Shown: positions 3,388 through 32,000, counted from the stretch's first letter. The stretch is DNA of 32,000 bases from Candidatus Saccharimonadota bacterium (GCA_016700375.1 CP065016.1:1170001-1202000), one strand, 5' to 3'. The notes: generated from the sequence alone by a model not told the origin. Program-made: numbers and translations.

Positions 3388-3554
3388 AAATCCCAAGTAC
3401 CAAATAACAAATCCCAAACAATATCGAAATTACAAATCCTAAATTCCGAATAAGCAGCATCTACCAGTAAACCGGTGTGTGCTTTTTTCGTTTGGGATTT
3501 AGGGCTATAAATATTGGAATTTGTTTGTCATTTGGAACTTGTAATTTGGAATTT
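3388..3554. repeat. Inverted arrangement of AAATCCC/AAATTCC units (left) and GGGATTT/GGAATTT units (right) in the divergent eno / ldh-gpm intergenic region
   Basis: Left arm: AAATCCC at 3388 and 3409, AAATCCT-AAATTCC at 3434-3447. Right arm: GGGATTT at 3494, GGAATTT at 3516, GGAACTT at 3534, GGAATTT at 3548. Confidence 0.6.
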
Positions 3555-3608
3555 CTCCCCCTTGGGTTCTATATTTTCCATTCCGCTTATGCCATACTAA
3601 AACGCATC

Positions 3609-9990: not shown

Positions 9991-10010
9991 AATTTAGAAT
10001 TTGGAATTTC
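9990..10010. repeat. Three tandem heptamers GAATTTA-GAATTTG-GAATTTC at the pyk stop / pgk upstream region
   Basis: Read directly from the sequence. The first unit overlaps the pyk stop codon. Confidence 0.7.
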
Positions 10011-10092
10011 GGTATTCGAATGTACAATAAAACCATAAACACTGACATGGCGAAATTTGTATCGGGTGTCAGAGGAAAAGAATGGGTGGGCA

Positions 10093-13925: not shown

Positions 13926-16900
13926 GTGCAAGCTAGTCTTCTCGTGGGGTTGAATCCGGAGCAGCGGCGGGCGGTGGTAACTACCGAGGGCCCGCTGCTT
14001 ATTCAGGCCGGGGCCGGTAGCGGCAAAACGAAAACGCTGACGCACCGCATCGCCTACCTGATTGCAACGCACCAGGCCACGCCCTACAGCATTCTGGCGG
14101 TGACATTTACGAACAAAGCTGCCCGGGAAATGCGCGAGCGGGTCTGGCGGCTCATGACCAGCATAGGGTCTCGGGATTTCCAAGCGAGCGATATGCAAGG
14201 CGCAACCGAGCAGCGCAGTGAATCGTATCGAGAATACGGTGAACGAGCAGCGCAGGTGGCAACGAAGCAGATTGCCGCTAGGGGCATCGATGAACCGGGT
14301 TCATCCCGGAGCAGCGATGCCTCGGTGGAAGTGCCGAGGAGTTTTATGCCGTGGATGGGGACATTCCACTCCATTTGCGTGCGGCTCCTGCGCATGGACG
14401 GCGAATATATCGGCATACCCTCAAGCTACGTTATTTTTGACGAAACTGACCGGCTCAGTACCATAAAGCGTATTTGCAAAGAGCAGCATGTCGATGAAAA
14501 ATCCTTTCCGCCGCGCACAATCTCCGGCTATATTAGCAGCGCCAAAAACGACATGATTGGACCAGATGAATACCGTGAGACCGTCAAAAGTCCCACTGCT
14601 GAAGTTGCCGCCAAAGTCTACCCGCTCTACCAGGCCGCCCTCCATGACGCCAAGGCGCTAGATTTCGACGACCTTATTTGGCGTGCCGTGCAACTCCTAG
14701 AGAACCACAAGGAAATCCGCGAAAGATGGCAAACTCGTTTCAGCCACATTATGATAGACGAATACCAAGATACAAATGCTGCCCAGTACCAACTGGTAAA
14801 GTATTTGGTCAATGAAAAGCGAAACCTGGCTGTCGTGGGCGACGACTGGCAATGTTTCCCCCCGGGCAGTCTGGTCCAGACACCGGACGGCATGAGGCCA
14901 ATTGAATCGCTGCAGCCTGGCGAGACCATAGTTGCATCTGCTGGGCAAGGAAAAACAGCGCCAGCTGTCGTAGACACTAAACGTGAATTTTTGTTTCAGG
15001 GTGAATTGGTTGCTATTAAAACAGCCAGAGGCCATGATATTACCGTTACGCCAAATCACTTGCTATTTGCGCACTGGCAGCATATTCCAGACAGCTATTT
15101 CGTGTACCTTATGTATTCGAAGCATCATGGGTATCGCATAGGTATGACAAAGTCATCTCGTTATGATGGTAAAAAGCACGATATTGGCCTGCGTGTCCGA
15201 GCCAACCAAGAACGTGCTGATAAAATGTGGGTATTAAAACTCTGTCAGAACCGCGCCGATGCCGAATATTGGGAGGCATTTTTCTCCTATAATTACGGCC
15301 TCCCGATGCTTGTTTTTCGGGCAGACGCGAATCGTTCTATGCAAATTACGCAAGACCACATTGATCGTATTTATGCCGACATCCCAACCGCTGAACGCGC
15401 AAAAAAACTTATGGCCGACCTAAACATCTTGTTTGAGTATCCCCACTTTGTGCCGCAAGCAACGGTGAGGAGCGGCCGCAAACGAGTGGCGCTGAATCTG
15501 GTGCTTTTTGGGGCAAAAGATGGAGGCAGCCGCCTATCCATAAACACAACCAGCGCCGCAGATTTAGCTGTTTTTCGAGAGCGAGGTTATGCGGTGCGTG
15601 CCGGAAGGGCGGGGACTTTTCGCAGTGAAATCCACGCCAAAGATTATGGAAAATTGGAAACAATCGGCATGGATATCACGGCAAATGCCCCTGCAATCGA
15701 ACTCAACCGCTATGCGTATATCTCGGCACATAAGTACCAGTTCATGCCAGCGGCGCAGTTGCATGCAGGTATGCTTGTACCGAGCCTCGCAGGTACAGAG
15801 ATAATCGATGATGTTATAGTAGCTGTAGAGAAGCTTCCGTATGACGGCCCGGTGTATGACATTGACGTGCGAGGAGTGCACAACTATATAGCGGGTGGAA
15901 TCGTAGTTCATAATTCGATTTACAGTTGGCGCGGCGCAGACTTTCGCAATATTTTGCGGTTTGAGAAAGACTATAAAGATTGCACGGTCATCAAGTTGGA
16001 GCAAAACTACCGCAGCACCGGGCATATACTAAATGCCGCTCATGGTGTCGTGACAAAAAACCAGCAGCGTAGTGACAAGCGGCTCTGGACAGCCGAAGGC
16101 GATGGCCGCCACGTCCAGCTTATGCAGGTTATGACGGAGCGAGCCGAAGCTGAAACCATCATGCGTACTATCCGCACGGCCGTGGATATGGGGCTTCGGC
16201 AGTACAAAGACTTTGCCGTCCTCTACCGCACGAATGCTCAGAGCCGCACCATAGAAGAAGTGATGGTGCAGTACGGTTTGCCATACCGTGTTGTCGGCGG
16301 CGTACGGTTCTATGACCGCAAAGAAATAAAAGACCTCATTGCCTATTTGCGCTTGCTGTATCAGCCAGATGACCGTACTAGCTTTGAGCGGATTGCCAAT
16401 GTGCCGGGCAGGGGTGTCGGTGCAGTCAGCCTCGGGAACTTCATTGGCTGGATGCTGGCCGAACGGCTAAGCCTGAGTGACGCTTTGAGTCGGGTGGCCG
16501 AATGCGACACCGTGACGGGCAAGGCGCGCAAAGGGCTGGTCGAGCTTGCGGACGTGCTTGGTTCGCTGCGAGCGCAGCTAGAAGAACTTCCGCCCGATAT
16601 TCTGGTCGAGAGCCTTGTAAAGCGGCTGGACTACCTCCGCTACCTCGATGATAAAACGCCGCAAGGCGAAAGCCGGCAGGAAAACGTACGTGAGCTTATA
16701 GGGGTGGCGCAAGGCTACCACGAAGAAGGCCTTAGCAGTTTTTTGGAAGAAGTAGCGCTCATTTCAGATCTCGATGCGACAAACCTGGACGATAACGCCG
16801 TTACGCTCATGACTTTGCATAGCGCCAAAGGCCTCGAATTCCCAGTGGTATTTATGATTGGACTCGAAGAGTCAATTTTGCCCCATAGCCGCGCCTTGTA

Positions 16901-17333
16901 CGACCAGAGCGAAATGGAGGAAGAGCGCCGCCTTTGTTACGTGGGCATGACGCGTGCCCGCGAGGAGCTATATATGCTGTATGCGACCTCACGCTCGCTA
17001 TACGGTGGTATGCAGCACAATATTCCCAGCCGCTTTCTTAGTGAAATTGCCGATGACCATGCGGAAGAAACCACCATTATGCCTAGTTTTGGACGAGCCG
17101 ATTTCACTTCATTTGATGATTTTTCACCCGAAGAACAGATAGGCCAGACAAGCAGTTTCACCCCGGATGAACCGCGCTATATCCCCGAACTCCATGAAGG
17201 TGACCACGTTCGGCACGACATATTTGGCACGGGAACGGTAGTAGAGCTCAGCGGCGATATGGCGGCCATTTACTTCAAAGGCAAAGGTCTCAAAAAACTA
17301 AACACCGCCTTCGCCCCTCTCGAGAAGCTGTAG
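13926..17333 (+). CDS. pcrA: ATP-dependent DNA helicase, PcrA/UvrD family, containing an intein
   Basis: SF1 helicase motifs: AGAGSGKT (I), TFTNKAAREMRER (Ia), IDEYQDTN (II), VGDDWQ//SIYSWRGA (III, split by the intein), QNYRST, LYRTNAQSR, TLHSAKGLEF and YVGMTRARE. Confidence 0.93.
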   Translation: MQASLLVGLNPEQRRAVVTTEGPLLIQAGAGSGKTKTLTHRIAYLIATHQATPYSILAVTFTNKAAREMRERVWRLMTSIGSRDFQASDMQGATEQRSESYREYGERAAQVATKQIAARGIDEPGSSRSSDASVEVPRSFMPWMGTFHSICVRLLRMDGEYIGIPSSYVIFDETDRLSTIKRICKEQHVDEKSFPPRTISGYISSAKNDMIGPDEYRETVKSPTAEVAAKVYPLYQAALHDAKALDFDDLIWRAVQLLENHKEIRERWQTRFSHIMIDEYQDTNAAQYQLVKYLVNEKRNLAVVGDDWQCFPPGSLVQTPDGMRPIESLQPGETIVASAGQGKTAPAVVDTKREFLFQGELVAIKTARGHDITVTPNHLLFAHWQHIPDSYFVYLMYSKHHGYRIGMTKSSRYDGKKHDIGLRVRANQERADKMWVLKLCQNRADAEYWEAFFSYNYGLPMLVFRADANRSMQITQDHIDRIYADIPTAERAKKLMADLNILFEYPHFVPQATVRSGRKRVALNLVLFGAKDGGSRLSINTTSAADLAVFRERGYAVRAGRAGTFRSEIHAKDYGKLETIGMDITANAPAIELNRYAYISAHKYQFMPAAQLHAGMLVPSLAGTEIIDDVIVAVEKLPYDGPVYDIDVRGVHNYIAGGIVVHNSIYSWRGADFRNILRFEKDYKDCTVIKLEQNYRSTGHILNAAHGVVTKNQQRSDKRLWTAEGDGRHVQLMQVMTERAEAETIMRTIRTAVDMGLRQYKDFAVLYRTNAQSRTIEEVMVQYGLPYRVVGGVRFYDRKEIKDLIAYLRLLYQPDDRTSFERIANVPGRGVGAVSLGNFIGWMLAERLSLSDALSRVAECDTVTGKARKGLVELADVLGSLRAQLEELPPDILVESLVKRLDYLRYLDDKTPQGESRQENVRELIGVAQGYHEEGLSSFLEEVALISDLDATNLDDNAVTLMTLHSAKGLEFPVVFMIGLEESILPHSRALYDQSEMEEERRLCYVGMTRAREELYMLYATSRSLYGGMQHNIPSRFLSEIADDHAEETTIMPSFGRADFTSFDDFSPEEQIGQTSSFTPDEPRYIPELHEGDHVRHDIFGTGTVVELSGDMAAIYFKGKGLKKLNTAFAPLEKL
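14853..15914 (+). mobile_element. Intein (354 aa) inserted in helicase motif III
   Basis: It starts with Cys (CFPPGSLV), has block B VTPNHLLF, and ends VYDIDVRGVHNYIAGGIVVHN followed by the +1 Ser of SIYSWRGA. Removing it restores the canonical VGDDWQSIYSWRGA. Confidence 0.88.
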
Positions 17334-19507: not shown

Positions 19508-20812
19508 ATGCAGAGAAAACAAACGGTATCTAACGCAGAAAAACGGGCATTGCCTATTGTGGCCCTGACATTATTTCTAGACGTCCTGGGTGTGGGCATA
19601 CTTATTCCGGTACTGCCCCAGCTTATTTACCACATGTTTGAACCGGCGGGCTATAGCTTTTCCACTTCCTTAATTTTGCTTGGCTGGCTTACGGCAATCT
19701 TTCCACTCATGCAGTTTCTGGCAACTCCTATACTTGGCCAGCTTTCTGATAGGTATGGGCGTCGACCAGTTTTGGCGTTTAGTCTGCTCGGAACAGTTAT
19801 TGGGTATGTGCTGTTTGCGCTTGCGATTGTAACAAAAAACATTCCGCTCTTGTTCGCTGCCAGGGCACTCGATGGCATAACGGGCGGTAACATAAGTGTG
19901 GCGCGCGCTGTCATAGCCGATATAACGCCGCCGGAGCGTCGAGCGCGGAATTTCGGCATGATAGGGGCAATCTTTGGTATTGGCTTTGTATTTGGCCCCT
20001 ATATTGGCGCACGGCTTGCTTCACCCGGGGTTGATTTTTTCAATCTGTTTACTTCACCGGGATGGTTCGGGCCGGCGACGCCATTTTGGTTTACGGCTGG
20101 ACTGGGTATTGTGAATATAACGCTACTACTCTTGCTGTTACCTGAGACACATCGTCACATAAACAAACAGGCAAAATTAGTCTGGAACAAGTCGCTGGAC
20201 AACATTCGCCGCGCCGCGCTTGACAAGCGTCTTCGGGTTATTTTTAGTGCCGAATTTCTCTTTTGGGGTGGTTTTACGTTTTTCACCACATTCTTTCAAA
20301 TACTGCTCATCGAGAAACTTGGGTTCAAGACAAATAACATTGGTGACTTCTTTGCCTATTTGGGGGTATGTATTGCCATAAGCCAGGGGGTACTCGTACC
20401 TTTCCTGAGCAAACGGTTTTTGCCGCACAACATCATTCGCGTAGCGATGTTCGGAATGTCTCTAGCCCTGCTGGGGCAGGTACTCCCAGAGAATACGGCA
20501 CAGCTTCTTTTAATAGCGCCGTTTATTGCGCTTTTTAACGGGCAGTTTATAGCGAACACTTCGGCACTAGTGAGCCTGACTGCTGGGCCGAAGCGGCAGG
20601 GTGAAGTGCTCGGCATTGAGGCTAGCGTGCAGGCACTTGCGCAGGCAATTCCAGCCGTTATTGGTGGATACGTCGCAACCATGGGCGTGAACGTGCCCGT
20701 TCTTGTCGCGGCGGCATTGGTATTTGCTGGCGCAGTTGTGTTTAACGTGTTCTACCGCATACCGAAAGATGTACTGCAGGCCGAGTCAGGCCAGGGTGGT
20801 TCAGTCAACTAA
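19508..20812 (+). CDS. MFS transporter (drug:H+ antiporter / Tet-like), with its last 4 codons and stop supplied by the adjacent IS
   Basis: About 12 hydrophobic segments. The MFS motif GQLSDRYGRRPVL is present. The last four sense codons (GGT TCA GTC AAC) and the TAA stop lie inside the IS1595-type inverted repeat. Confidence 0.85.
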   Translation: MQRKQTVSNAEKRALPIVALTLFLDVLGVGILIPVLPQLIYHMFEPAGYSFSTSLILLGWLTAIFPLMQFLATPILGQLSDRYGRRPVLAFSLLGTVIGYVLFALAIVTKNIPLLFAARALDGITGGNISVARAVIADITPPERRARNFGMIGAIFGIGFVFGPYIGARLASPGVDFFNLFTSPGWFGPATPFWFTAGLGIVNITLLLLLLPETHRHINKQAKLVWNKSLDNIRRAALDKRLRVIFSAEFLFWGGFTFFTTFFQILLIEKLGFKTNNIGDFFAYLGVCIAISQGVLVPFLSKRFLPHNIIRVAMFGMSLALLGQVLPENTAQLLLIAPFIALFNGQFIANTSALVSLTAGPKRQGEVLGIEASVQALAQAIPAVIGGYVATMGVNVPVLVAAALVFAGAVVFNVFYRIPKDVLQAESGQGGSVN

Positions 20813-21689
20813 CATGGAACAAGCGTAGCCTGTAAGAAGTTCGTTGGGTTTTCAAAGAGCCACGGTTGGTTGTGTCTCGCCATCCATTCCCGACACAGAG
20901 CTTCAAGACGTCGTGTCAGTATCCTACCGCCGTACAGCTTTCTGGCATGTCGTTTGCTGATGCTCCAGATATTCTCTCCTTGGTTCGTACTGGCATAGTC
21001 ACCTTTGCTGTGGTTACGGCTCTCGTGCAGATAGCCCAGGAGCGGCAGCTCTTCGTATGCCCACCATTTATCGCTGATGACTAAACTACCGTGTACGACG
21101 TAATCTTGGACGAACCGCTCTAAGGCTTCTTTGCCACGGCTATCGGTAATCCTGAGGGCAAGTTTCCGAGTATGAGGCTCGATTGCGCCGACCACGATGC
21201 GCTGCGGCTGTTTGCTCTTCAGTTTTCCAAAGTAACTCTCGTCTACCTGGACAAGGTGCGTAAGAAGCGGTGCTGTGTCCGGAATTTGCGTCCGGAACCG
21301 TTCGTACCAGCGGGCGACGGTCGTATAGCTCACCTGCGCGAGGAGGGTTGCTACTTCCGGACCTTTCTTCTGTTGCCAGCACCAGAGCAAGACGAACAGT
21401 TGTTTTGGCTTCAGCTTCATGCCATACAGCCAGGAGCCCTGCCAGGCAGTTGCCCGGTACTTGTGGCGACAAACAGCGCACCACAGATAACCGCGGACAT
21501 ACTTCTCCTGTAGCACCTCGTCGCAGCGCGGACAGTGACACCGCTGACCAAATACTAACCTGTTAAGGTACATCCAGTACTTCTTATTACTGGAAAACTT
21601 TGGTAGCTTAGACATTGGAACAACTCCTCTTTACTTGTTAGGTTTGCACTTACAAGTTTACGGGTTGTTCCGTTTTAGTTTAATGAACC
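20798..21689 (-). mobile_element. IS1595-family (ISXO2-like) insertion sequence, 892 bp
   Basis: Terminal inverted repeats GGTTCAgtcAACTAAcatGGAACAA (20798->) and GGTTCAttaAACTAAaacGGAACAA (reverse complement from 21689). They are flanked by the 8-bp direct repeat GCCAGGGT (20790-20797 and 21690-21697). Confidence 0.85.
20809..21615 (-). CDS. IS1595-family (ISXO2-like) DDE transposase
   Basis: N-terminal Zn-ribbon CHCPRC...CAVCRHKY. Catalytic motifs VQVDESYFG, ISDKWWAYE and HSKGDYA...NQGENIWSISKR. Confidence 0.85.
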   Translation of the reverse strand: MSKLPKFSSNKKYWMYLNRLVFGQRCHCPRCDEVLQEKYVRGYLWCAVCRHKYRATAWQGSWLYGMKLKPKQLFVLLWCWQQKKGPEVATLLAQVSYTTVARWYERFRTQIPDTAPLLTHLVQVDESYFGKLKSKQPQRIVVGAIEPHTRKLALRITDSRGKEALERFVQDYVVHGSLVISDKWWAYEELPLLGYLHESRNHSKGDYASTNQGENIWSISKRHARKLYGGRILTRRLEALCREWMARHNQPWLFENPTNFLQATLVPC

Positions 21690-21700
21690 GCCAGGGTACA

Positions 21701-22742
21701 TGTACTAAGCCCCAATTGTCCAGACACTTAGACATGAGTTACTGTTCCTTTCCATACCGCTTCATAGTGCTCCATTGGCGGCAGGTTATTGCAGCTGCTA
21801 TGCCGTCTCACGCGATTGTATTCGTTCTGCCATAGTTTCATTGCTTCGTTGAACGCGACGACATCAAGCTCGGTCGTTTTGGTGACGTGGTAAAACTCTT
21901 CTTCGTCTGTCCGATGGCTCCGCTCGACAAAACCATTATGTTGGGGTGTACCCGGTCGGGATAGCTTGTGCTCGATGCCCCGGTCGAGCAGGTACTGCGT
22001 GAACGGGTGGATACGTCTGAGCTCATGGTCACGCTTTTTGTTACCGCCAGTAGACAAATTGGTGAACGTGGAGTGGTTATCTGTCTGGACACATTCCACC
22101 GTAATACCAATCGATTCGTAGAACGCCAGGGCTTCACGCACAAAGGCGATTGAGTTGCTATTCGACAAGCCATCCTTGACCGCCAGGTACCGGATCTTGC
22201 TGACAATGTCTATCGCTGTAAACTGCTGTCTCCGACTCCGTCGTTTATCTTCGTCCGGACGAACCGGTGCAGCCTTAGTGTCAATCTGCACTCGGTAGCC
22301 TGGATAGGGCGCGTAGAACGGTCTCGTTGGCTTTTTCTTTGGATGTTTCTGGTGCTTTACGAGGTCGGCTCGTTCAATAATCCGCGGACAGCTTTCTCGC
22401 CAATGGATATTCCAGAGTCACTCATCTCATCGACGATTCGCTTCGGGCCATAGGATAGTCCCAGCCTGATTTGTAGCACCAAATCCTCAATGTCTTCATT
22501 CGTCTGCCAGGATACCCTGCCTTTTGGTCCAGGCTTCTGCGGGAACAGTTCGATCCGCCAAGCATAGATAGTATCCCGATGGATCCCAAACATTCGGGCA
22601 GCGATTGCCGCGCCTTTCGCATCGGCTTCAGTTAACACTCGTTTACGATAGGCAATAACTTGATGTCGGGTTAGGTTCTTCTTCATACACATATGCCCCA
22701 ATTCTACACACCGAGGTGTCGGAGGGATTGGGGCTTAGTATA
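21701..22742 (-). mobile_element. IS481-family insertion sequence, 1042 bp
   Basis: Inverted repeats TGTACTAAGCCCCAAT...GACAC (21701->) and TATACTAAGCCCCAAT...GACAC (reverse complement from 22742), about 21/27 identical. They are flanked by the 15-bp direct repeat AACCGCCAGGGTACA (21686-21700 and 22743-22757). Confidence 0.85.
21728..22701 (-). pseudogene. IS481-family transposase (HTH + rve/DDE) split by a -1 frameshift
   Basis: The 114-aa HTH part (22357-22701) ends ...KAVRGLLNEPTS*. The -1 frame continues ...RIIERADLVKHQKHPKKKPTRPFYAPYPGYRVQIDTK into the DDE part (QIDTK, VQTDNHSTF, PQHNGFVERSHRT). Confidence 0.75.
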
Positions 22743-24334: not shown

Positions 24335-25819
24335 ATGGAGCCAACAAACCCTTCTAAGCCAACTAATACTACCAGTTCTGCAAATGGCACGGAGTCGACA
24401 GCTCCGGTGGTTGCAGCACCCGTAAGCCCTGATGTGGCACCGCCACAATCACAAGAAGCGAGCTCTGTTTCGGCACCGCAAGTATCTGCGCCAGCCGTGA
24501 GCGGAAATCCTGTTGTTGATGGCATGCAGTCTAGCCCAGTCTCTGGCGGGGCGTCGGCGGGTGGTAAGAAGAAATGGTTTGTACCCGCGCTTGTCGGTGG
24601 GGCGGCAGTGCTGCTTTTGGCCGGTGGCTATGTGTTTGCTATGTATCTACCAAATCGACCAGAGTCAGTCTTTAGCACAAGCCTCCAGCGCAGCGGACAG
24701 GCCGTTGATAAACTTGTAGATTATATGGAAAATACCAAAACTTCGGCATCTCAAATGTACGATGGTACCATGACTCTGCAAAGCAGTGGTGCGAGCCTAG
24801 ACGCAACCATCAAAGGTGAGGGTGACGAAAAAAATGCCAAACTTATGCTTGAGGCAAACGTTTCGGGACAAAAATTCACCGCTGATATGGTGGCAGTGGA
24901 TGCCGAGCAATCAGACATGCCAGATATGTATGTGAAGGTTAGTGGTGTTAAGAGCATGTTAGAAGGGCTCGGTGGCCCGCAGTACGGTGCACTTGATAGT
25001 CAGTGGATTGGTATAGATCATACTTTGCTCGACACCTATTTGAATCTGCAGGAAGAACAGCTTGGCACAAATTCGAGTCTCTCGGCAGCCCCCACAGAAG
25101 AGCAGCTCAAAGACGCCCTAACCAGAATGCAAAAGGTCAATAAAGAGTATTTGTTTAGTGGTGACAAAGCAAAGGCGGTTGTAACATACAAAAAGTACGA
25201 AGGCAAAGAAACCAAAAATGGTCGTGATGTCAACCACTATACGGCTGGCTATAACAAAGATAACTTAAAAGCATATGTTGAAGCCGTTGCGAAAGCACTA
25301 GATGAAAGCAAGCTCAACGACTGGGCAAAACAGCAAGATGGCGGCAAGAAAGTAAGTGAAATGCTGAACGTTAGTGAGCTAAAGAGCTCTATCGACAAAA
25401 TGAAAGCAGATGACACCTTTGATATGTATGTCGATGTGAAGACCAAACTGGTTCAGAGCGTGATGTTTACCTCTAGCGATGATAAAAGTACGTTCACCGT
25501 TGCCCAAAATTATACCGGGGGAGATGTCTATCCACTAGAGCTCACGATTGACTCTGGTGATAGCGCCAACAAAGGCAAGGCAATGATTGGTATGAGTGTA
25601 AACACAAAAACCAACGAACTGACCGTAAAACTTGACGTTGACATGACTGGAACCACCGCAAAAATGAATCTAAAAGTAACACCAAGTGATAAAAAAGTAA
25701 GTATCACCGCCCCAACCGGAGCAAAGCCAGTTGCCGATGTTATGAAGCAGCTTGGACTCGACCAGAGCGTTTTGGGTGCGCAAACCTTATTGCCGAATAT
25801 TGCTGGTTCAGCGCTTTAG
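24335..25819 (+). CDS. Hypothetical membrane-anchored extracytoplasmic protein (494 aa)
   Basis: The N-terminus is P/S/A/V-rich and low-complexity. It has a single TM helix (WFVPALVGGAAVLLLAGGYVFAMYL) and a large K/D-rich ectodomain. No known motif recognised. Confidence 0.65.
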   Translation: MEPTNPSKPTNTTSSANGTESTAPVVAAPVSPDVAPPQSQEASSVSAPQVSAPAVSGNPVVDGMQSSPVSGGASAGGKKKWFVPALVGGAAVLLLAGGYVFAMYLPNRPESVFSTSLQRSGQAVDKLVDYMENTKTSASQMYDGTMTLQSSGASLDATIKGEGDEKNAKLMLEANVSGQKFTADMVAVDAEQSDMPDMYVKVSGVKSMLEGLGGPQYGALDSQWIGIDHTLLDTYLNLQEEQLGTNSSLSAAPTEEQLKDALTRMQKVNKEYLFSGDKAKAVVTYKKYEGKETKNGRDVNHYTAGYNKDNLKAYVEAVAKALDESKLNDWAKQQDGGKKVSEMLNVSELKSSIDKMKADDTFDMYVDVKTKLVQSVMFTSSDDKSTFTVAQNYTGGDVYPLELTIDSGDSANKGKAMIGMSVNTKTNELTVKLDVDMTGTTAKMNLKVTPSDKKVSITAPTGAKPVADVMKQLGLDQSVLGAQTLLPNIAGSAL

Positions 25820-25844
25820 TAACTCACAGAGATGGGGTGGTTGT

Positions 25845-26471
25845 GTGAAGGGGCTACATTTGGTTCGTACGGTCAGAAAACTCTATAGCTTATGGCTTGC
25901 ACGAGAACTGGTTGCATCGCTCAGGCTGCACGATGATTCACTCGCAGCGTACGTGAAATGGTTTTCGCGTACAAAAACATACCGCGTACATAGTGCAGTA
26001 GATAGGTCAGATATACCGCTTGTCGTAGTGTTGGTGTCTGCCATGATTGGTCAAATAACGGGTGGTGTTTGGCTTTTAACACACTGGTTTGCACAAGGGA
26101 GCGCAGGTGTTTGGGCCTTTGGCGCGGCCCTTCTGCTGGCATATCCGCTCATAACGGCATATGGATTTGCGTTTTTGATGGGACTTTGGCGAGCCACCGC
26201 TTTCATAGCGTCGCCAAAGCGAGCCGGGAAAGCAGTAGTTGCAAGAGTGCTTGAAATGCAAGTCATGCGGCTGCGACGGAGACACCACTTTACGGTGGTT
26301 GCAGTAGCCGGTTCGGTCGGCAAAACATCCACCAAACTTGCGATTGCAGAGCTGCTGGGGACGGGGCTAAGGGTCCGATACCAGAAGGGCAACTACAACG
26401 ACAGGGTGACGGTTCCGCTCGTGTTTTTGGGCAAAATCAGCCCGCTCTATACAACATATTTGCTTGGATGA
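25845..26471 (+). CDS. MurF-like Mur ligase paralog 1, N-terminal fragment (TM domain + P-loop)
   Basis: The GTG at 25845 follows GGGGTGG. Hydrophobic helices IPLVVVLVSAMIGQITGGVWLL and AFGAALLLAYPLITAYGFAFLMGLW. P-loop VAVAGSVGKTST. The fragment ends in a TGA that overlaps the next ATG. Confidence 0.7.
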   Translation: MKGLHLVRTVRKLYSLWLARELVASLRLHDDSLAAYVKWFSRTKTYRVHSAVDRSDIPLVVVLVSAMIGQITGGVWLLTHWFAQGSAGVWAFGAALLLAYPLITAYGFAFLMGLWRATAFIASPKRAGKAVVARVLEMQVMRLRRRHHFTVVAVAGSVGKTSTKLAIAELLGTGLRVRYQKGNYNDRVTVPLVFLGKISPLYTTYLLG

Positions 26472-27469
26472 AAGTGTTTGGTGAAAATGCGGCCGCACTT
26501 GCCCAGCCATATCCGTATGATGTTGTCGTGGTCGAAATTGGTACAGACGGACCGGGCCAGATGAAGCAATTCGCCTATCTGCGCCCAGACATATGTGTTC
26601 TCACCGCAATAACACCCGAGCACATGGAGAATTTTGGCTCCCTCGCTGCGGTTGCAGCAGAAGAAACACAAATTTTTGACTACGCTAAACAGGTACTCGT
26701 TAGTAGCGATGACGTCCCAGCCAGCTATGTGCAAGGCGAAACCTACCTTCGCTACAGTCTCAGCGACAGGAGCGCCGAGAACTATGGGCAAACGACAAAA
26801 TCGAGTTTAAGCGGGCAGGAACTTTCTATGGTGCTTCCTGGGGGAAATCTCACGCTACACATACAGTACCTTGGTGAACAGGGCGCGCGGTGTGCGCTCG
26901 CCGCTGCAGCGGTTGCGGGGTTACTTGGGTTCGATACGGTTGCAATAAAGCAAGGGCTTTCAGAACTTGAGCCCTTTGCGGGGCGAATGCGAGTGTTTGG
27001 CGGCATTAAGAACACGAGCATCATCGATGATACCTACAACGCCTCGCCCGTGGCCGTAAAAGCGGCGCTCGATGTTCTGTACGCGGCCCGGGCATCGCAG
27101 CGTATCGCTGTGCTGGGCAGTATGAATGAAATGGGCGCGTATGCAAAGACGGCTCACCAGGAAGTGGGCGAATACTGTGACGCTCATAAGCTCGACTACG
27201 TTCTGACGCTGGGTGCCGATGCAGCGCGCTGGATAGCTCCGGCTGCGAAAGCGAGGGGTTGCCGGGTACACAGCTTTACCGGGGCCGATGCTTGCGCGGC
27301 GTTTGTCAGAAAGCACCTACAGGAACGTGCGGTGGTGCTCGTGAAGGGTTCGCAAAACGGTGTCTTTGCCGAGGAAGTTGTAAAGCAGCTTCTGGCCCAG
27401 CCCAAAGATGCGGAAAACCTTGTGCGGCAAAGCCCAGCGTGGCTACGCAAAAAGGCAAGACAAGCGTAA
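26468..27469 (+). CDS. MurF-like Mur ligase paralog 1, C-terminal fragment (rest of the central domain + C-terminal domain)
   Basis: VVVVEIGTDGPGQM, LTAITPEHMENFGS, and GRMRVFGG...IIDDTYNASPVAVKAALDVL (the MurF-type DDTYNA-P motif). Confidence 0.8.
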   Translation: MKVFGENAAALAQPYPYDVVVVEIGTDGPGQMKQFAYLRPDICVLTAITPEHMENFGSLAAVAAEETQIFDYAKQVLVSSDDVPASYVQGETYLRYSLSDRSAENYGQTTKSSLSGQELSMVLPGGNLTLHIQYLGEQGARCALAAAAVAGLLGFDTVAIKQGLSELEPFAGRMRVFGGIKNTSIIDDTYNASPVAVKAALDVLYAARASQRIAVLGSMNEMGAYAKTAHQEVGEYCDAHKLDYVLTLGADAARWIAPAAKARGCRVHSFTGADACAAFVRKHLQERAVVLVKGSQNGVFAEEVVKQLLAQPKDAENLVRQSPAWLRKKARQA

Positions 27470-27493
27470 GCCCAGCTGCTACACTAGAAGCAT

Positions 27494-28240
27494 ATGCAGG
27501 TTGTCGTACAGGATATTGTGACGCAATACAAACGCCACGGAAAAGGTAAGGTAATTCTCTTACTCCATGGCTGGGGAGATACAGGGGCTAGCTGGGATAG
27601 CACAGCTCAGTCACTCGCTGCGCAGTACGATGTCGTCGTACCTGACCTTCCGGGTTTTGGGGGGACCAGCCAGCCCAAAGAAGCTTGGAGCCTGAGTGAG
27701 TATGCCGTTTTTGTGCGAGATTTTTTACACAAACTCGGACTTTCGCCGTACGCAATAATTGGCCACTCCAACGGTGGGGCGATTGCGGTTCGAGGAATTG
27801 GCCAGGGTCATTTTACCGCTGAAAAGCTTGTGCTGCTCGCGAGTGCAGGCGTGCGGAGCCCTCGCGCTAGCTATGGCTTGAACGTGATTGCCAAGGTGGG
27901 AAAAATAGTTGCATCACCGCTTCCTCGCCGCGTTCGCAGCAGACTGCGCACGAAATTGTATGCCAAGGCGGGTTCTGACCTACTGGTCGCAGAGCATATG
28001 CAGGAAACCTTTAAACGAATTGTTCGTGACGATGTCAGAGCTGACGCCGCATACATAAGCACGCCAACCTTGCTCGTGTATGGTGACCGCGACGAACAGA
28101 CACCGCTATCAATTGCTCAACAGCTAGAGCAGGCCATAGAAGGCTCTCGGTTGCAGGTTATCCCACATGCCGGGCATTTTCTGTATGTCGATGCGCCTGA
28201 GGAAACACTTCAGTTGGTTCAGGATTTCCTTCATGCATAA
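27494..28240 (+). CDS. Alpha/beta-fold hydrolase
   Basis: An LLLHGWGD oxyanion region, the nucleophile elbow GHSNGG, GDRDEQTP, and the C-terminal catalytic His in HAGHFLYVD. Confidence 0.85.
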   Translation: MQVVVQDIVTQYKRHGKGKVILLLHGWGDTGASWDSTAQSLAAQYDVVVPDLPGFGGTSQPKEAWSLSEYAVFVRDFLHKLGLSPYAIIGHSNGGAIAVRGIGQGHFTAEKLVLLASAGVRSPRASYGLNVIAKVGKIVASPLPRRVRSRLRTKLYAKAGSDLLVAEHMQETFKRIVRDDVRADAAYISTPTLLVYGDRDEQTPLSIAQQLEQAIEGSRLQVIPHAGHFLYVDAPEETLQLVQDFLHA

Positions 28241-29684
28241 GTGGCTCCGTAGCGCCGTGGCACTGTATTCGGTCCCGCGCCTAAGCGCGACACTTGCGTA
28301 CATGCTTCAAAATACCGAATACCAACCGCTGCCATACTTGCGGTGGTTCTGGCGAACGCAAGATTTTTCGCGGGTTATGCACCGTCGGACGCTCGAGCAT
28401 ACTCGGGCGGCACGTCTCATACAGCTGATTATCAGTCTCGGTGTTGTTGGGCACGTTGCGTTCGCTCTGCTCTATATGGGTACGGCCAGAATAAGCCATA
28501 GTCCGGGTGCATTTTGGTACGGTGCGGCCGCGCTTGTTGCATACCCGGTGGTCTGGGCACACATATTAGCTCTTGGGGTGGTCGCGGGTCGAATCTTGGT
28601 AGGTGTGCCACGCGAGCGGAAAAATGCCCAGCAGGCTGCCGAACTATTTCAGGCTCACCCGGGCTTGCGCATAGCCATCGCGGGCAGCTACGGTAAGACC
28701 AGTATGAAGGAGCTGCTAGCAACGGTGCTCCAAGAGGGAAAACGAGTAGCCGCCACACCGGGTAATATGAATGTCATTAGTTCCCATGCGCGCTTTGCCC
28801 ATAGCCTCAGTGGAGAAGAAGAGGTGGTTATCGTTGAATTCGGAGAAGGTCGCCCCGGAGACGTCGCGTTGTTTAGCCGCGTTGTGCAGCCCACTCACGC
28901 TATCATAACGGGGGTCGCACCGGCACACCTGGACCAGTACAAAACCCTTGAGGCGGCCGCAGACGATATATTTTCACTGGCCAGCTTTGTGCCGAGTGAG
29001 CAGCTATATGTCAATGCTGACTCAGACGCAGTCCATAGTTTTCTGCGGCCAGAATTTCGTATCTATAGCCGCAGTACCACACTGGGCTGGCGTATCCAAA
29101 AGCCAACGACAAACCTAGAAGGAACGTCGTTTGAGCTGGTGAAAGGCAAAAAACGCCTAAAGCTGAAAAGCGGTTTAGTTGGTTTGCATATGGTTGGGCC
29201 GCTTGCGTTTGTTGCTGCGTTTGCCTTGCAGCTCGGTCTCAGTGAAAAACAGGTCGTACGCGGTATAGCGAAGACGAAGCCATTTGAGCACCGCATGCAA
29301 CCATACTCGCTTGGCGGAGCGACCATTATCGACGACACCTACAACGGTAATCTAGAGGGCGTGCGGGCGGGAACTGAGCTGCTGAAGCTACTTCCGGCAA
29401 AGCGCAAAATATACGTAACTCCTGGGCTTGTAGACCAGGGTAAAGATTCGCCGTCTATCCACCGCGCTCTTGGCCGTACGATAGCAATGGCCGAGCCAGA
29501 CGTAGTTGTGCTGATGAAAAATTCGGTAACCCAGTACATCGCGGCCGGATTGAGCGACACCGACTTCGCCGGTGAGGTGCGTATAGAAACCGACCCACTT
29601 AGCTTTTACCAGAACCTTTCAAGCTTTACGGCCAAGGGCGACCTTGTCCTTATGCAAAATGATTGGCCAGATAACTACGCATAG
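28233..29684 (+). CDS. MurF-like Mur ligase paralog 2 with an N-terminal transmembrane domain
   Basis: The ATG at 28233 overlaps the hydrolase stop by 8 nt. Hydrophobic helices LIQLIISLGVVGHVAFALLY and FWYGAAALVAYPVVWAHILALGVVAG. P-loop IAGSYGKTSM. Also VIVEFGEGRPGD, ITGVAPAHLDQY, FEHRMQ and IIDDTYNGN. Confidence 0.85.
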   Translation: MHKWLRSAVALYSVPRLSATLAYMLQNTEYQPLPYLRWFWRTQDFSRVMHRRTLEHTRAARLIQLIISLGVVGHVAFALLYMGTARISHSPGAFWYGAAALVAYPVVWAHILALGVVAGRILVGVPRERKNAQQAAELFQAHPGLRIAIAGSYGKTSMKELLATVLQEGKRVAATPGNMNVISSHARFAHSLSGEEEVVIVEFGEGRPGDVALFSRVVQPTHAIITGVAPAHLDQYKTLEAAADDIFSLASFVPSEQLYVNADSDAVHSFLRPEFRIYSRSTTLGWRIQKPTTNLEGTSFELVKGKKRLKLKSGLVGLHMVGPLAFVAAFALQLGLSEKQVVRGIAKTKPFEHRMQPYSLGGATIIDDTYNGNLEGVRAGTELLKLLPAKRKIYVTPGLVDQGKDSPSIHRALGRTIAMAEPDVVVLMKNSVTQYIAAGLSDTDFAGEVRIETDPLSFYQNLSSFTAKGDLVLMQNDWPDNYA

Positions 29685-29701
29685 GAGGGTATACTAGTAT
29701 C

Positions 29702-30886
29702 ATGAAAACAGTCGCAGTCTTTTTCGGAGGCCAATCGGCCGAACACGATGTATCTATTATTACCGCCCTCACAAGCGTAATTGCGCCGCTGGAGTTGGCT
29801 AAAAACTATACGGTCATTCCAGTTTATATCGCCAAAGACGGGCGCTGGTATGTGCATGAAAAGTTAAAAGATATAGCTACCTACCAGAACGGAGCCGTAC
29901 AGGACAAACTATCCCGGGTGAAATCTACAGGGGTAATTTGTGGCAATGGGATGAAACTGCTCATCCCGAGCGGTTTCGGGAAACGCAAAGAAATTACCGT
30001 CGACATTGCATTTCCCGCCATGCACGGTACCCATGGCGAAGACGGCGAACTTATGGGGATGTTTGAGCTTGCAGGCATACCATATGTTGGTTGCGGTGTG
30101 GCGGCCAGTGCGGTTGCCATGGATAAAGTGCTTGCCAAAAAGGTTGCAAGCGCCGAGGGCATATTGACCCCTAGGGGCATATATACCGACTCGGTGCTCA
30201 TTACGAAAAATCCTGCTGCCACGAAGACCATGTGCAAAGGACTCCATTATCCATTGTTTGTGAAGCCAGCGCATCTTGGTTCGAGCATTGGCGTCAGCCG
30301 GGTCAAGAATGAAAAAGAACTGACAAATGCGCTCGAGGTTGCGGCGCACTATGACCCAACAGTCATTGTCGAAGAAGCGGTGCCCAACTTGGTTGAGGTG
30401 ACGCTACCCATTATGGGGCCGCATGCCAATCCGCAGCCTGCTGTGCTTGAACAGCCGCTCACTCGCAACGAAGATTTCTTTGATTTTGAGCGCAAGTATA
30501 TGCACGGTGGCAAAAAAGGCGGCAAACTTGGCACGAAAGCTGGCGGGAAGCCCAGCGTAAAAGGCTCGCAGGGCTATAGCCACATTCCTGCAAACCTGCC
30601 AAAAGACTTGTTCGACGCTGCTGTACAAACAGGCCTAGGGGTGTACCGAGCACTTGGCTGCGACGGTATTGCCCGTGTCGATATGCTAGTCGATACCAAG
30701 GCTAAAAAAGTCTATTTCAACGAAGTAAATCCGCTCCCTGGCAGTCTCTATGCTCACAACTGGCAGCAGGCCGGCGTTAGTCGGGTTGAGCTGGTAGAAA
30801 AACTGATTACGTTTGCGCTTGCTCGACACGCAGAAAAGGCCACGCACACCACCACATTCACTACGAATTTCCTAAAACAGTTCTAA
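29702..30886 (+). CDS. ddl: D-alanine--D-alanine ligase
   Basis: VAVFFGGQSAEHDVSI, MHGTHGEDGELMGMFELAGIPYVG, FVKPAHLGSSIGVS, ARVDMLVD...YFNEVNPLPGS. ATP-grasp Ddl signatures. Confidence 0.93.
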   Translation: MKTVAVFFGGQSAEHDVSIITALTSVIAPLELAKNYTVIPVYIAKDGRWYVHEKLKDIATYQNGAVQDKLSRVKSTGVICGNGMKLLIPSGFGKRKEITVDIAFPAMHGTHGEDGELMGMFELAGIPYVGCGVAASAVAMDKVLAKKVASAEGILTPRGIYTDSVLITKNPAATKTMCKGLHYPLFVKPAHLGSSIGVSRVKNEKELTNALEVAAHYDPTVIVEEAVPNLVEVTLPIMGPHANPQPAVLEQPLTRNEDFFDFERKYMHGGKKGGKLGTKAGGKPSVKGSQGYSHIPANLPKDLFDAAVQTGLGVYRALGCDGIARVDMLVDTKAKKVYFNEVNPLPGSLYAHNWQQAGVSRVELVEKLITFALARHAEKATHTTTFTTNFLKQF

Positions 30887-30937
30887 GCGCCCTCGAGAAG
30901 GTGCGAAATTGACCCACCCCTGATATACTAGAGGTCT

Positions 30938-32000
30938 ATGAAACGCTACAATCCGAAAGAAATCGAACCAAAGTGGCAAAGTGAGTGGGACAAAGAGCAG
31001 GTCTACAAAGCCGACCTAAACTCCACGAAGCCCAAATACATCGCAATGAGCATGTTCAACTACCCCAGCGGGGCGGGTATACACATTGGCCATGCCATGA
31101 ACTACACCATCAGCGACGTCATGGCCCGGTTCAAGCGCCAGCAGGGCTTTGAAAGCTACCACCCCGTAGGTTGGGATGCATTTGGCCTTCCTGCCGAAAA
31201 CTATGCCATTAAAGCTGGTGTGTCGCCGCAGCAGAGTATGGCGAAGATTATCCCAAGCTACCACACCCAGTACAAAGCCATGGGCTGGAGTAACGACTGG
31301 AGCAAAGAAATCAACACGCACCTGCCGGAATATTACCGCTGGACGCAGTGGATTTTCTGGAAGATGTACGAGCAGGGCATGGCGTACCAAGATGCTCGCA
31401 TGCAGTGGTGGTGCACCAGGTGCCAAACGGTGCTGGCAAACGAACAGGTCTTGGACGGCAAATGCTGGCGGCACGACGCAGCCGATGACCCAGATGTGCA
31501 AAAACGCGAAGTAAAACAGTGGTTTTTCCGCATAACCGACTATGCCGATGAACTGCTTCAGGCCACCCACGACCTCGACTGGTCAGACGTGGTCAAAACC
31601 GCCCAGGTAAACTGGATAGGTAAAAGCGAAGGCGCGAACGTCCGGTTTGTGGTAGAGGGCCATGGGGCCAAAGATGAGTTTGTCGAGGTATTCACAACGG
31701 CTCATGATACGATATTTGGCACTACATTTATGGTACTGGCACCGGAGCACCCACTGGTAGCACATTACGGACAGCTTGCAGATAACGCAGTGGACATAGA
31801 GGAATACATTGCGGGAGTCAATCGCAAGTCCGAACTTGAGCGTTTGGCAGATAAGACCAAATCTGGCGTACCTATCGAAGGTCTGTATGCGATAAATCCT
31901 CTAAATGGAGCAAAGATTCCTATCTGGACCGCTGACTATGTGCTTATGGGCTATGGAACTGGTGCCGTTATGGGTGTACCAGGCGAAGACGAGCGAGATA
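30938..32000 (+). CDS. leuS: Leucine--tRNA ligase, 3'-truncated by the window edge
   Basis: This ORF is not in the supplied track because it runs off the window. My own translation from the ATG at 30938 (preceded by GAGG) has no stop to nt 32000. It reads MKRYNPKEIEPKWQSEW..., with YPSGAGIHIGH (HIGH motif), VGWDAFGLPAEN, VNWIGKSEGA, VFTTAHDTIFG and VMGVPGEDERD. Confidence 0.95.
   Translation, partial: MKRYNPKEIEPKWQSEWDKEQVYKADLNSTKPKYIAMSMFNYPSGAGIHIGHAMNYTISDVMARFKRQQGFESYHPVGWDAFGLPAENYAIKAGVSPQQSMAKIIPSYHTQYKAMGWSNDWSKEINTHLPEYYRWTQWIFWKMYEQGMAYQDARMQWWCTRCQTVLANEQVLDGKCWRHDAADDPDVQKREVKQWFFRITDYADELLQATHDLDWSDVVKTAQVNWIGKSEGANVRFVVEGHGAKDEFVEVFTTAHDTIFGTTFMVLAPEHPLVAHYGQLADNAVDIEEYIAGVNRKSELERLADKTKSGVPIEGLYAINPLNGAKIPIWTADYVLMGYGTGAVMGVPGEDERD

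Follow-up and report, generated by a model that had tools for sequence, protein, structure and literature searches.

Mur ligases, which are antibiotic targets, are commonly portrayed as soluble proteins of three domains. What, then, might two Mur ligases of a single bacterium be doing at the membrane? The question is raised by a 32,000-nucleotide (nt) stretch of a Candidatus Saccharimonadota genome (GCA_016700375.1, CP065016.1:1170001-1202000; hereafter “the window”, with positions counted from its first letter), in which two MurF-like ligases, paralog 1 and paralog 2, each begin with a hydrophobic helical hairpin and are encoded together with an alpha/beta hydrolase and a D-Ala-D-Ala ligase, Ddl (25845-30886). 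A preliminary description of this DNA had proposed that both proteins are membrane-tethered peptide ligases fed by Ddl, which might act on lipid-linked or membrane-proximal cell-wall precursors, and its author knew of no characterised example of such an architecture; we likewise found no paper on it in the literature on Mur ligases of Saccharibacteria and Patescibacteria.

The answer to which our analysis leads, and which we regard as reasonably probable, is that the locus of this ultra-small bacterium of the Saccharibacteria (TM7) is a peptidoglycan-precursor cluster in which paralog 1 is the MurF of the lineage, equipped with an optional membrane anchor, and paralog 2 is the ligase of a cassette that it forms with the hydrolase and the Ddl.

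Both ligases are derived from MurF

The Mur-ligase motifs listed in the preliminary description were all present where it had placed them. They comprise the P-loops AGSVGKTST (paralog 1, 26307-26333) and AGSYGKTSM (paralog 2, 28680-28706), the central motifs EIGTDGPG and TPEHMENFG in paralog 1 and EFGEGRPG and APAHLDQY in paralog 2, and the C-terminal motifs IIDDTYNASP (27020-27049) and IIDDTYNGN (29325-29351). Pfam searches recovered Mur_ligase_M (PF08245) and Mur_ligase_C (PF02875) in both proteins above the gathering cut-offs, with scores of 73.5 and 35.1 bits for paralog 2 and of 62.6 and 68.8 bits for the 3′ piece of paralog 1, the gene for which is split in this assembly (see below). The 5′ piece, which holds the P-loop start of Mur_ligase_M, scored 18 bits and falls below the cut-off only because of the split. 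Among NCBIfam models, murF (TIGR01143, EC 6.3.2.10) ranked first for both paralogs, the matches starting at model positions ~53-68 and covering ~53-418 only. E. coli MurF (1gg4) was the top sequence match in the PDB, with E = 1.7e-20 for paralog 2 alone and E = 7e-39 for a profile of the paralog 1 family (58 sequences). Amino acids (aa) 134-441 of paralog 2 align with residues 90-404 of E. coli MurF and, for both paralogs, the alignments to solved MurF structures start at MurF residue ~90, none reaching the MurF N-terminal domain.

Structural models led to the same assignment. AlphaFold2 modelled paralog 2 with a mean predicted local distance difference test (pLDDT) score of 92.0 and a predicted template modelling (pTM) score of 0.86, and paralog 1 with values of 91.9 and 0.84. 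When the paralog 2 model was compared with known structures using Foldseek, the top matches were MurF structures, namely 4qf5 (E = 5e-23), 1gg4 and 3zl8 (template modelling score 0.71), with scores of 0.64-0.68 among its MurF matches. Pfam, NCBIfam, hydropathy, AlphaFold2 and the MurF alignments therefore bear out the earlier proposal that these are MurF-derived ligases in which a membrane hairpin replaces the N-terminal domain.

Across 58 homologues of paralog 1 and 62 of paralog 2, the P-loop, the Mg-binding Glu, the xxAH His, the GR Arg, the DDTYN motif and the C-terminal His were invariant; in paralog 2 the active-site residues other than the P-loop and DDTYN correspond to E202, H232, R354 and H410. 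From these invariant catalytic and ATP-site motifs, both ligases should be active, ATP-dependent enzymes. The two differ in the C-terminal domain, which in Mur ligases binds the incoming amino acid or dipeptide. Paralog 1 retains the MurF motifs DDTYNASP, LGSMNELG and KGSQ, and is further distinguished by an insertion of 22-27 aa that follows PLVFFG and by an extended, conserved C-terminus; paralog 2 instead has DDTYNGNLEG and TPGLVDQG, and its tail, conserved as MQNDWxDNY, replaces KGS(R/Q).

A predicted membrane hairpin stands in for the MurF N-terminal domain

In both paralogs, a module of ~125 aa stands in for the N-terminal domain of canonical MurF. It contains the basic motif reported earlier as common to the two proteins (YVKWFSRTKTYRV in paralog 1, 25950-25988; YLRWFWRTQDFSRV in paralog 2, 28335-28376), and Kyte-Doolittle analysis detected two hydrophobic segments in each protein (aa 57-79 and 87-114 in paralog 1; aa 59-85 and 96-126 in paralog 2). 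AlphaFold2 modelled the module of both as three short helices followed by a long helical hairpin (pLDDT ~92). In paralog 1, the short helices span aa 2-13, 18-28 and 33-42, and the two predicted transmembrane helices aa 54-84 (26004-26096) and aa 89-122 (26109-26210); the equivalent helices of paralog 2 are aa 3-12, 14-27 and 32-41, aa 58-88 (28404-28496) and aa 91-126 (28503-28610). In the paralog 2 model, the second transmembrane helix continues unbroken to aa 141, into the ligase-domain helix that precedes the P-loop strand. Because Arg/Lys-rich stretches precede the first transmembrane helix and follow the second, and because the loop that connects them is short, the hairpin probably adopts an N-in/C-in topology, which would hold the catalytic domains on the cytoplasmic side against the membrane.

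Comparison of the two families using hhalign gave a collinear alignment that begins at residue 1 and reaches the C-terminal domain (probability 100, E = 1e-51, 24% identity), from which it follows that they are full-length paralogs, module included. The possibility that the N-terminus is a divergent MurF N-terminal domain was rejected, since this region, a hydrophobic and helical one, shows no alignment to that domain. We also searched 1.3 Mb of Saccharibacteria loci with a hidden Markov model (HMM) of the module, which matched paralog 1, paralog 2 and one stand-alone open reading frame (ORF) only; this search rejected the idea that the module is a general anchor common to other enzymes. The stand-alone ORF (L043:6039-6452; 137 aa; E = 1e-4) lies 30 nt 5′ of a paralog 1 gene whose product has no transmembrane segment (L043:6483-7754), so that in some species the anchor may be a separate polypeptide.

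The cytosolic N-terminal segment is under different degrees of conservation in the two families, with 12 of 57 columns at least 95% conserved in paralog 2 versus 2 of 53 in paralog 1. In the basic loop of paralog 2, R51, R52, L54 and T57 are invariant.

Paralog 1 is probably the MurF of the lineage

To place paralog 1, we ran an exhaustive HMMER search of 1.84 billion representative sequences and viewed the best 150 matches. Most of these were proteins of ~415-435 aa that aligned from their own residues 2-10 to residues ~125-540 of paralog 1, at 33-51% identity, and only ~8 of the 150 representatives had the long N-terminus. A species survey, in which one genome per GTDB species was scanned, yielded 80 paralog 1 loci, nearly all from Saccharibacteria/Saccharimonadales, with a few titled “bacterium” or “Patescibacteria group” and one Limnocylindria. 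Among these 80 loci, 33 had the long form, 45 had a short form without the module and 2 were truncated. Long and short forms interleave in a neighbour-joining tree, in which E. coli MurF groups with paralog 1, indicating repeated loss or gain of the anchor, without which the enzyme can do its basic job.

Genes for Ddl are frequent neighbours of paralog 1. A protein of ~300 aa is encoded within 1.5 kb of it, often overlapping, in 38 of the 80 loci; five of these neighbours were tested, and all pass the DdlB-type model NF002378 (255-318 bits, cut-off 243), which rejects the alternative that they are some other ATP-grasp enzyme. Together with the 17 loci that carry the cassette described below, this brings to 55 of 80 the loci in which a ddl gene adjoins paralog 1. 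The two activities are even fused in P0322, a 782-aa protein from a Logan contig that consists of a complete D-Ala-D-Ala ligase (aa 12-352) and a short paralog 1-type ligase (aa 369-777).

A further line of evidence comes from Southlakia epibionticum (hereafter S. epibionticum), in the published tables of which six proteins carry PF08245, namely MurC, MurD, MurE, FolC, MurT and a single “MurF”, SEML1_0599 (PMC10633639). According to these tables, SEML1_0599 is a 426-aa protein with its M domain at 29-239 and without a KEGG Orthology (KO) assignment, its gene lies 85 bp from a tRNA, and transposon sequencing scored it as essential (PMC10633639). At this length there is no room for an N-terminal extension, and the listed domain spacing and length suggest that it is of the paralog 1 rather than the paralog 2 type. 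In the same tables, MurE of S. epibionticum (SEML1_0049, 403 aa, M domain from 22) also appears without its N-terminal domain, and MurC and MurD keep theirs (PMC10633639).

It is the predominance of short forms in the family, the linkage to ddl, the fusion to Ddl and the single MurF-like gene listed for S. epibionticum that identify paralog 1 as the MurF ortholog of the lineage. The Saccharibacteria MurF has lost the canonical N-terminal domain. The preliminary description had set its proposal against the case of a sole, ordinary MurF ortholog with no second paralog or hydrolase linkage elsewhere; paralog 1 does have the status of an ortholog, but a second paralog and the linkage to a hydrolase do exist.

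We considered whether the anchor might instead mark a change of substrate, such that paralog 1, paralog 2 or both complete the stem peptide on undecaprenyl-pyrophosphate-linked N-acetylmuramic acid (MurNAc)-tripeptide or another membrane-proximal precursor, which the hydrolase then trims or edits. The domain that handles the uridine diphosphate (UDP) moiety in canonical MurF is missing from both proteins, the run of the second transmembrane helix into the first ligase helix would place the catalytic domain at the membrane surface, and paralog 2 keeps its module in 17 of 17 loci, along with the invariant juxtamembrane residues R51, R52, L54 and T57. Loss of the N-terminal domain is, however, lineage-wide and independent of the anchor, and a tether could merely serve to hold the enzyme near MraY. 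For paralog 1 in particular, the absence of the module from 45 of 80 orthologues, and from SEML1_0599 as tabulated, contradicts the lipid-linked acceptor proposed earlier, and an anchor that is optional is no mark of a switch to lipid-linked substrates. We therefore regard a change of substrate as unlikely and return to paralog 1 as a MurF with an optional anchor.

The reading frame of paralog 1 is interrupted in this assembly

The preliminary description had treated paralog 1 as one open frame, overlooking a frameshift that divides it into ORFs of 208 and 333 aa. In frame 0, translation meets a TGA at 26469-26471 after 208 codons, and the remainder of the protein is encoded in another frame (~26429-27469). 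Alignment with the intact orthologues of L001 and L002 (542 and 539 aa) located the break at PLVF|FGQ, where the window reads GTGTTTTTGGG, with a run of five T residues (26424-26428) from which one T is missing. In L003 and L004, JGI metagenome contigs whose DNA is 95-96% identical to that of the window, the run comprises six T residues, and this is the sole indel in the gene. Once the T is restored, paralog 1 is a protein of 541 aa that is 100% identical to P0121, the 90% cluster of which includes numerous independently assembled, intact copies of 541 aa; the identical, uninterrupted protein is encoded in at least 20 further assemblies. The two pieces are identical to GenBank entries QQS69459.1 (208 aa) and QQS69460.1 (333 aa), so the split is in the deposited record, where paralog 1 is annotated as two “hypothetical proteins”. 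Because a single base was lost from a homopolymer and intact, identical alleles exist elsewhere, the break is most likely an assembly error, although it may be a real strain-level mutation at the T run. Programmed frameshifting at this site was rejected, as relatives carry one extra T and an uninterrupted frame.

A second, independent disruption was found in L003, where TGG is changed to a TAG amber codon (L003:2798-2800) at codon 115 of paralog 1 (window 26187-26189), within the second transmembrane helix. What remains of this allele is a membrane piece of 114 aa and, if translation starts at a downstream Met, a ligase of 404 aa without transmembrane segments that resembles the natural short forms.

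Two disruptions in one species group could be taken to mean that the window frameshift is real and that, in organisms with the cassette, paralog 2 is the working MurF and paralog 1 is redundant and decaying, an idea with which the occurrence of the cassette without a nearby paralog 1 in three of three loci anchored on paralog 2 would agree. Yet the deletion sits in a homopolymer and is absent from the many assemblies with an intact gene, paralog 1 is well conserved in cassette loci (58-79% identity in the ligase part), and even the amber allele still permits a ligase like the natural short forms. Replacement of paralog 1 by paralog 2 thus appears quite improbable.

Paralog 2 is inherited with a hydrolase and a long Ddl

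Paralog 2 has homologues in more than 2,900 clusters. The best 120 matches are all 460-494 aa in length, mostly 477-486, and every named organism among them belongs to the Saccharibacteria or Patescibacteria. In the neighbour-joining tree, paralog 2 forms a long-branch clade of its own.

The gene order hydrolase, paralog 2 and long Ddl (ddlL) was found in 17 of the 80 loci anchored on paralog 1 and in all three loci anchored on paralog 2. In every locus in which the region upstream of paralog 2 is present, the hydrolase gene lies 5′ of it, usually overlapping, and a Ddl of 384-407 aa is encoded within ~2 kb on its 3′ side in every locus in which the contig reaches that far. In the window, the hydrolase gene overlaps the start of paralog 2 (28233) by 8 nt and ddl starts (29702) 17 nt past the paralog 2 stop (29684), as noted earlier. 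Across the 80 loci, ddlL never occurs without paralog 2, and the cassette and the short Ddl gene (ddlS) never occur in the same locus; closely related paralog 1 lineages, such as L011 and L012, carry either the cassette or the short Ddl at the same position. In the three loci anchored on paralog 2, the cassette has no paralog 1 within 7 kb, and its neighbours there include an alanine racemase (L086:9357-10511), a class-IV aminotransferase that is possibly a D-amino-acid aminotransferase (L088:3556-4371), a polysaccharide deacetylase and leuS. Two further comparisons are only suggestive: in a search for a DdlB-type ddl in cassette genomes, none of the best 120 ddlS matches fell on either of two such genomes (1.21 Mb and 1.26 Mb), and no contig is common to the best 120 matches of ddlS and of paralog 2.

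The true unit is a cassette of hydrolase, paralog 2 and long Ddl that is inherited as a three-gene set. The genetic tie to Ddl and the conservation of the hydrolase-ligase-ddl linkage, both anticipated in the preliminary description, are therefore upheld, but its view that the two ligases bracket the hydrolase holds for the window and not in general, and the conserved module it envisaged does not have paralog 1 as a constant part.

The hydrolase is a member of the alpha/beta fold (Abhydrolase_1, 94.2 bits; Abhydrolase_6, 85.6 bits) with an HGW oxyanion motif and a catalytic triad of Ser92, in the nucleophile elbow GHSNGG (27761-27778), Asp200 and His228. S92, D200, H228 and HGW are invariant in 21 homologues. 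Its NCBIfam and PDB relatives are generic esterases, lipases and C-C hydrolases, and no subfamily cut-off was reached.

The cassette Ddl passes two D-Ala-D-Ala ligase models (NF002528, 302.3 bits, cut-off 262; TIGR01205, 252.9 bits, cut-off 245.65). It passes none of the Van-type models: VanG comes nearest, with 246.9 bits where 495 are required, and the rest score lower. The motifs SAEHDVS, GSSIG and ERKY, which we take to represent the Glu/Ser/Tyr substrate triad of D-Ala-D-Ala ligases, are present. After the omega-loop Lys-Tyr, at aa 268-291 (30503-30574), this Ddl contains the Gly/Lys-rich insertion HGGKKGGKLGTKAGGKPSVKGSQG. The motif that flanks it, KYxxGGKKG...GxQGYSxIPA, is conserved in 15 of 16 Ddl sequences of the cassette type and is lacking in the Ddl of ~300 aa found in other Saccharibacteria.

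Other associations between a ligase and a hydrolase were seen outside the cassette. In L050, a homologue of the hydrolase gene (9277-10008) overlaps a short paralog 1 gene (10001-11284) by 8 nt, the same coupling geometry as that between the hydrolase and paralog 2, and the locus has no paralog 2. A second kind of association is found in P0305, P0297, P0306 and P0318 (620-627 aa), in which a short paralog 1-type ligase is followed by a C-terminal domain of ~190 aa with a Cys...His...Asp pattern and a weak match to Peptidase_C39_2 (21.5 bits, cut-off 24); among their cluster members, one bears the name Candidatus Saccharibacteria bacterium.

Proposed roles of the two ligases

We propose that paralog 1 would use ATP to join D-Ala-D-Ala to the MurNAc-tripeptide precursor. 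Where the hairpin is present, it would fasten the catalytic domains to the cytoplasmic surface of the membrane, presumably close to MraY, to which the product would be handed, making the anchor an optional localisation device. Paralog 2 would be an active ligase with a nucleophile or acceptor somewhat different from that of paralog 1, using the dipeptide supplied by its own Ddl, and the translationally coupled hydrolase may prepare or correct a substrate. The cassette would then most likely serve as an alternative module for producing D-Ala-D-Ala and for its incorporation at the membrane. Paralog 2 may have MurF activity on a different acceptor, may install a different dipeptide or may salvage host peptides.

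Several observations weigh against this explanation. The TIGR01143 scores, 171.4 bits for paralog 2 and 40.2 plus 187.6 bits (~228 summed) for the two pieces of paralog 1, fall short of the curated cut-off of 288.6. A lysine is reportedly carbamylated in MurD, MurE and MurF. In E. coli MurF we take this residue to be K202, a numbering that our literature search did not confirm; it aligns with an invariant glutamate, E274, in paralog 1, and paralog 2 has A243, D244 and D245 at this turn, with no lysine. At the site of the MurF GRHNxxN motif, paralog 1 has GEQGA(K/R) and so is without GxHNxxN, the His of which is retained in paralog 2. The T-run frameshift and the L003 amber codon may together mean that paralog 1 is decaying where paralog 2 is present, and other parts of this genome may encode a canonical MurF or a further Ddl. 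The S. epibionticum tables list no protein with a Ddl Pfam domain, KO K01921 or an alanine racemase annotation (PMC10633639), and an essential MurF-like gene without an annotated Ddl or alanine racemase implies that, as far as these tables go, an in-house link to D-Ala-D-Ala is not universal. Finally, the roles proposed for paralog 2 and the hydrolase are drawn from gene context alone. Taken together, the two paralogs fall below the HMM cut-off, have no MurF N-terminal domain and have no carbamylatable lysine, yet most likely work like MurF.

For paralog 2, three other explanations were considered. Paralog 2, the hydrolase and the Ddl could form a membrane-surface pathway in which stem peptides are completed or repaired while attached to a precursor that is lipid-linked or comes from the host, with R51, R52, L54 and T57 of paralog 2 providing a new acceptor site in place of the UDP-binding domain. 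If this were so, these epibionts would have transferred to the membrane stage a Mur-ligase step regarded as “cytoplasmic”; we consider it rather improbable.

We give still less credence to an arrangement resembling that of the van genes or MurF2, in which a variant Ddl makes an alternative dipeptide or depsipeptide, paralog 2 installs it and the hydrolase removes the normal product. Paralog 2 does diverge from paralog 1 and MurF exactly in the C-terminal-domain motifs, the omega loop of the cassette Ddl is remodelled, and the cassette is patchily distributed and behaves as a replaceable unit. Against this, the Ddl keeps the Glu/Ser/Tyr motifs and passes the D-Ala-D-Ala model (302 versus 262) while remaining far under the Van models (VanG, 247 versus 495), the hydrolase belongs with the generic alpha/beta serine hydrolases rather than with the VanX- or VanY-type metallopeptidases, and ddlS is never beside the cassette in the 80 loci. 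Least plausible of all is a salvage ligase like Mpl, which would re-attach host-wall peptides released or trimmed by the hydrolase to a MurNAc precursor: Saccharibacteria are epibionts with little biosynthetic capacity (PMC10633639), and the ligase-hydrolase pairing recurs (the L050 overlap; the C-terminal domains with a weak Peptidase_C39_2 match), but paralog 2 derives from MurF and not from MurC or Mpl, and it is constantly accompanied by a Ddl, for which a route of salvage alone would have no need.

Gene content of the window

From 24335 to 32000, all genes lie on the plus strand, in the order membrane protein, paralog 1, hydrolase, paralog 2, ddl and leuS (Table 1). The 494-aa protein encoded upstream of paralog 1 had no match in Pfam or NCBIfam searches; homologues are encoded directly 5′ of both long and short forms of paralog 1 in many loci and species. 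As in the window, leuS lies downstream of ddl in L001, L002, L086 and L087. A scan for promoters and terminators performed no better than on shuffled sequence. The rest of the window holds no other cell-wall genes of the dcw type. It includes glycolysis genes, a UvrD-type helicase with an intein, ksgA, a major facilitator superfamily transporter and two insertion sequence elements.

Table 1 Features of the paralog 1-paralog 2 locus in the window
Feature	Position	Strand	Evidence or remarks
Conserved upstream neighbour, 494 aa	24335-25819	+	ORF; Pro/Ser/Ala-rich N-terminus; hydrophobic segment aa 81-105
Paralog 1, MurF-type ligase	25845-27469	+	541 aa after repair; split in this assembly
Paralog 1, 5′ piece (208 aa)	25845-26471	+	
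Paralog 1, 3′ piece (333 aa)	26468-27469	+	
T5 homopolymer, frameshift site	26424-26428	+	Relatives T6, encoding PLVFFGQ
Paralog 1 N-terminal membrane module, aa 1-129	25845-26231	+	Hydropathy, AlphaFold2
Alpha/beta-fold serine hydrolase, 248 aa	27494-28240	+	Abhydrolase_1, Abhydrolase_6
Paralog 2, intact divergent MurF-type ligase, 483 aa	28233-29684	+	
Paralog 2 N-terminal membrane module, aa 1-130	28233-28622	+	Hydropathy, AlphaFold2
ddl, long (DdlA-type) D-Ala-D-Ala ligase, 394 aa	29702-30886	+	
leuS (leucyl-tRNA synthetase), 5′ part	30938-32000	+	Translation; extends past the window end

The UvrD/PcrA-type helicase (13926-17333; 1,135 aa) contains Hint and Intein_splicing matches within ~aa 307-663. 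At 3477-5267, a D-2-hydroxyacid dehydrogenase and a histidine-phosphatase (phosphoglycerate-mutase-like) domain are fused in one ORF of 596 aa, which adjoins the genes for enolase, PPDK, pyruvate kinase, PGK and TIM. Mobile-element remnants occupy 20809-22701 on the minus strand, where an IS1595-type DDE transposase (20809-21615) is accompanied by an IS3-type integrase-core ORF (21728-22291) and a small ORF upstream of it (22357-22701); a similar pair of rve and helix-turn-helix ORFs is found 3′ of leuS in L002 (14570-15540).

Comparison with known systems

The emerging picture is one in which an entire class, the Saccharibacteria, relies for the last Mur step on a ligase devoid of the N-terminal domain and anchored to the membrane in some members, and in which about one fifth of the sampled species have an extra, always-anchored paralog tied to a hydrolase and a distinct Ddl. 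If paralog 1 works as proposed, MurF would recognise its nucleotide substrate without an N-terminal domain, and the cassette offers a testable handle on how host-dependent epibionts obtain and install D-Ala-D-Ala.

The nearest known enzymes are canonical MurF and the short MurF of other Saccharibacteria. With canonical MurF, both paralogs have in common the central ATPase and C-terminal domains, together with the P-loop, the Mg-binding Glu, the xxAH His, the GR Arg and DD(S/T)YN, to which paralog 1 adds the GxMxELG...H motif. They differ from it in that a hairpin replaces the N-terminal domain of ~80 aa, and in that the carbamylated Lys has become Glu in paralog 1 and Ala/Asp in paralog 2. The short Saccharibacteria MurF, probably exemplified by SEML1_0599 (PMC10633639), has the same ligase body as paralog 1, and its next gene is often ddl. 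Unlike paralog 1 it has no membrane module, and the cassette does not appear in the published S. epibionticum tables. Thousands of copies of these ligases are held in the databases under the automatic names “Mur ligase family protein”, “hypothetical protein” or MurF.

The poly-gamma-glutamate synthase PgsB/CapB, a Mur-ligase-like enzyme described as membrane-associated, offers another example of a Mur-fold ATPase held at the membrane; it is related by fold only, has other partners and another product, and its model, TIGR04012, scores 16.6 bits on paralog 2 against a cut-off of 222.7. Closer in organisation are the MurF2/MurX copies of glycopeptide-resistance and glycopeptide-biosynthesis clusters, which adjoin VanA-type ligases and are likewise extra MurF paralogs inherited with their own Ddl-family ligase and a hydrolase. 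Here, by contrast, the Ddl appears to be of the D-Ala-D-Ala type, the hydrolase is neither VanX nor VanY, and the paralog is anchored and without an N-terminal domain.

A further parallel is MurT-GatD, the lipid II isoglutaminyl synthase, of which S. epibionticum is listed as having a separate pair (PMC10633639). MurT chains match the profile of the paralog 1 family weakly (E = 4e-5), and MurT is a soluble protein with a DUF1727 C-terminal domain and a glutamine amidotransferase partner, whereas paralog 2 has an ordinary Mur_ligase_C domain with no DUF1727 match in Pfam, an alpha/beta hydrolase as its partner and a transmembrane hairpin. In both cases, however, a Mur-fold ligase shows translational coupling to a small partner with hydrolytic activity, and the pair acts, or in the case of paralog 2 would act, once wall synthesis has reached the membrane. 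MurT-GatD would provide the best functional analogy for the hydrolase and paralog 2.

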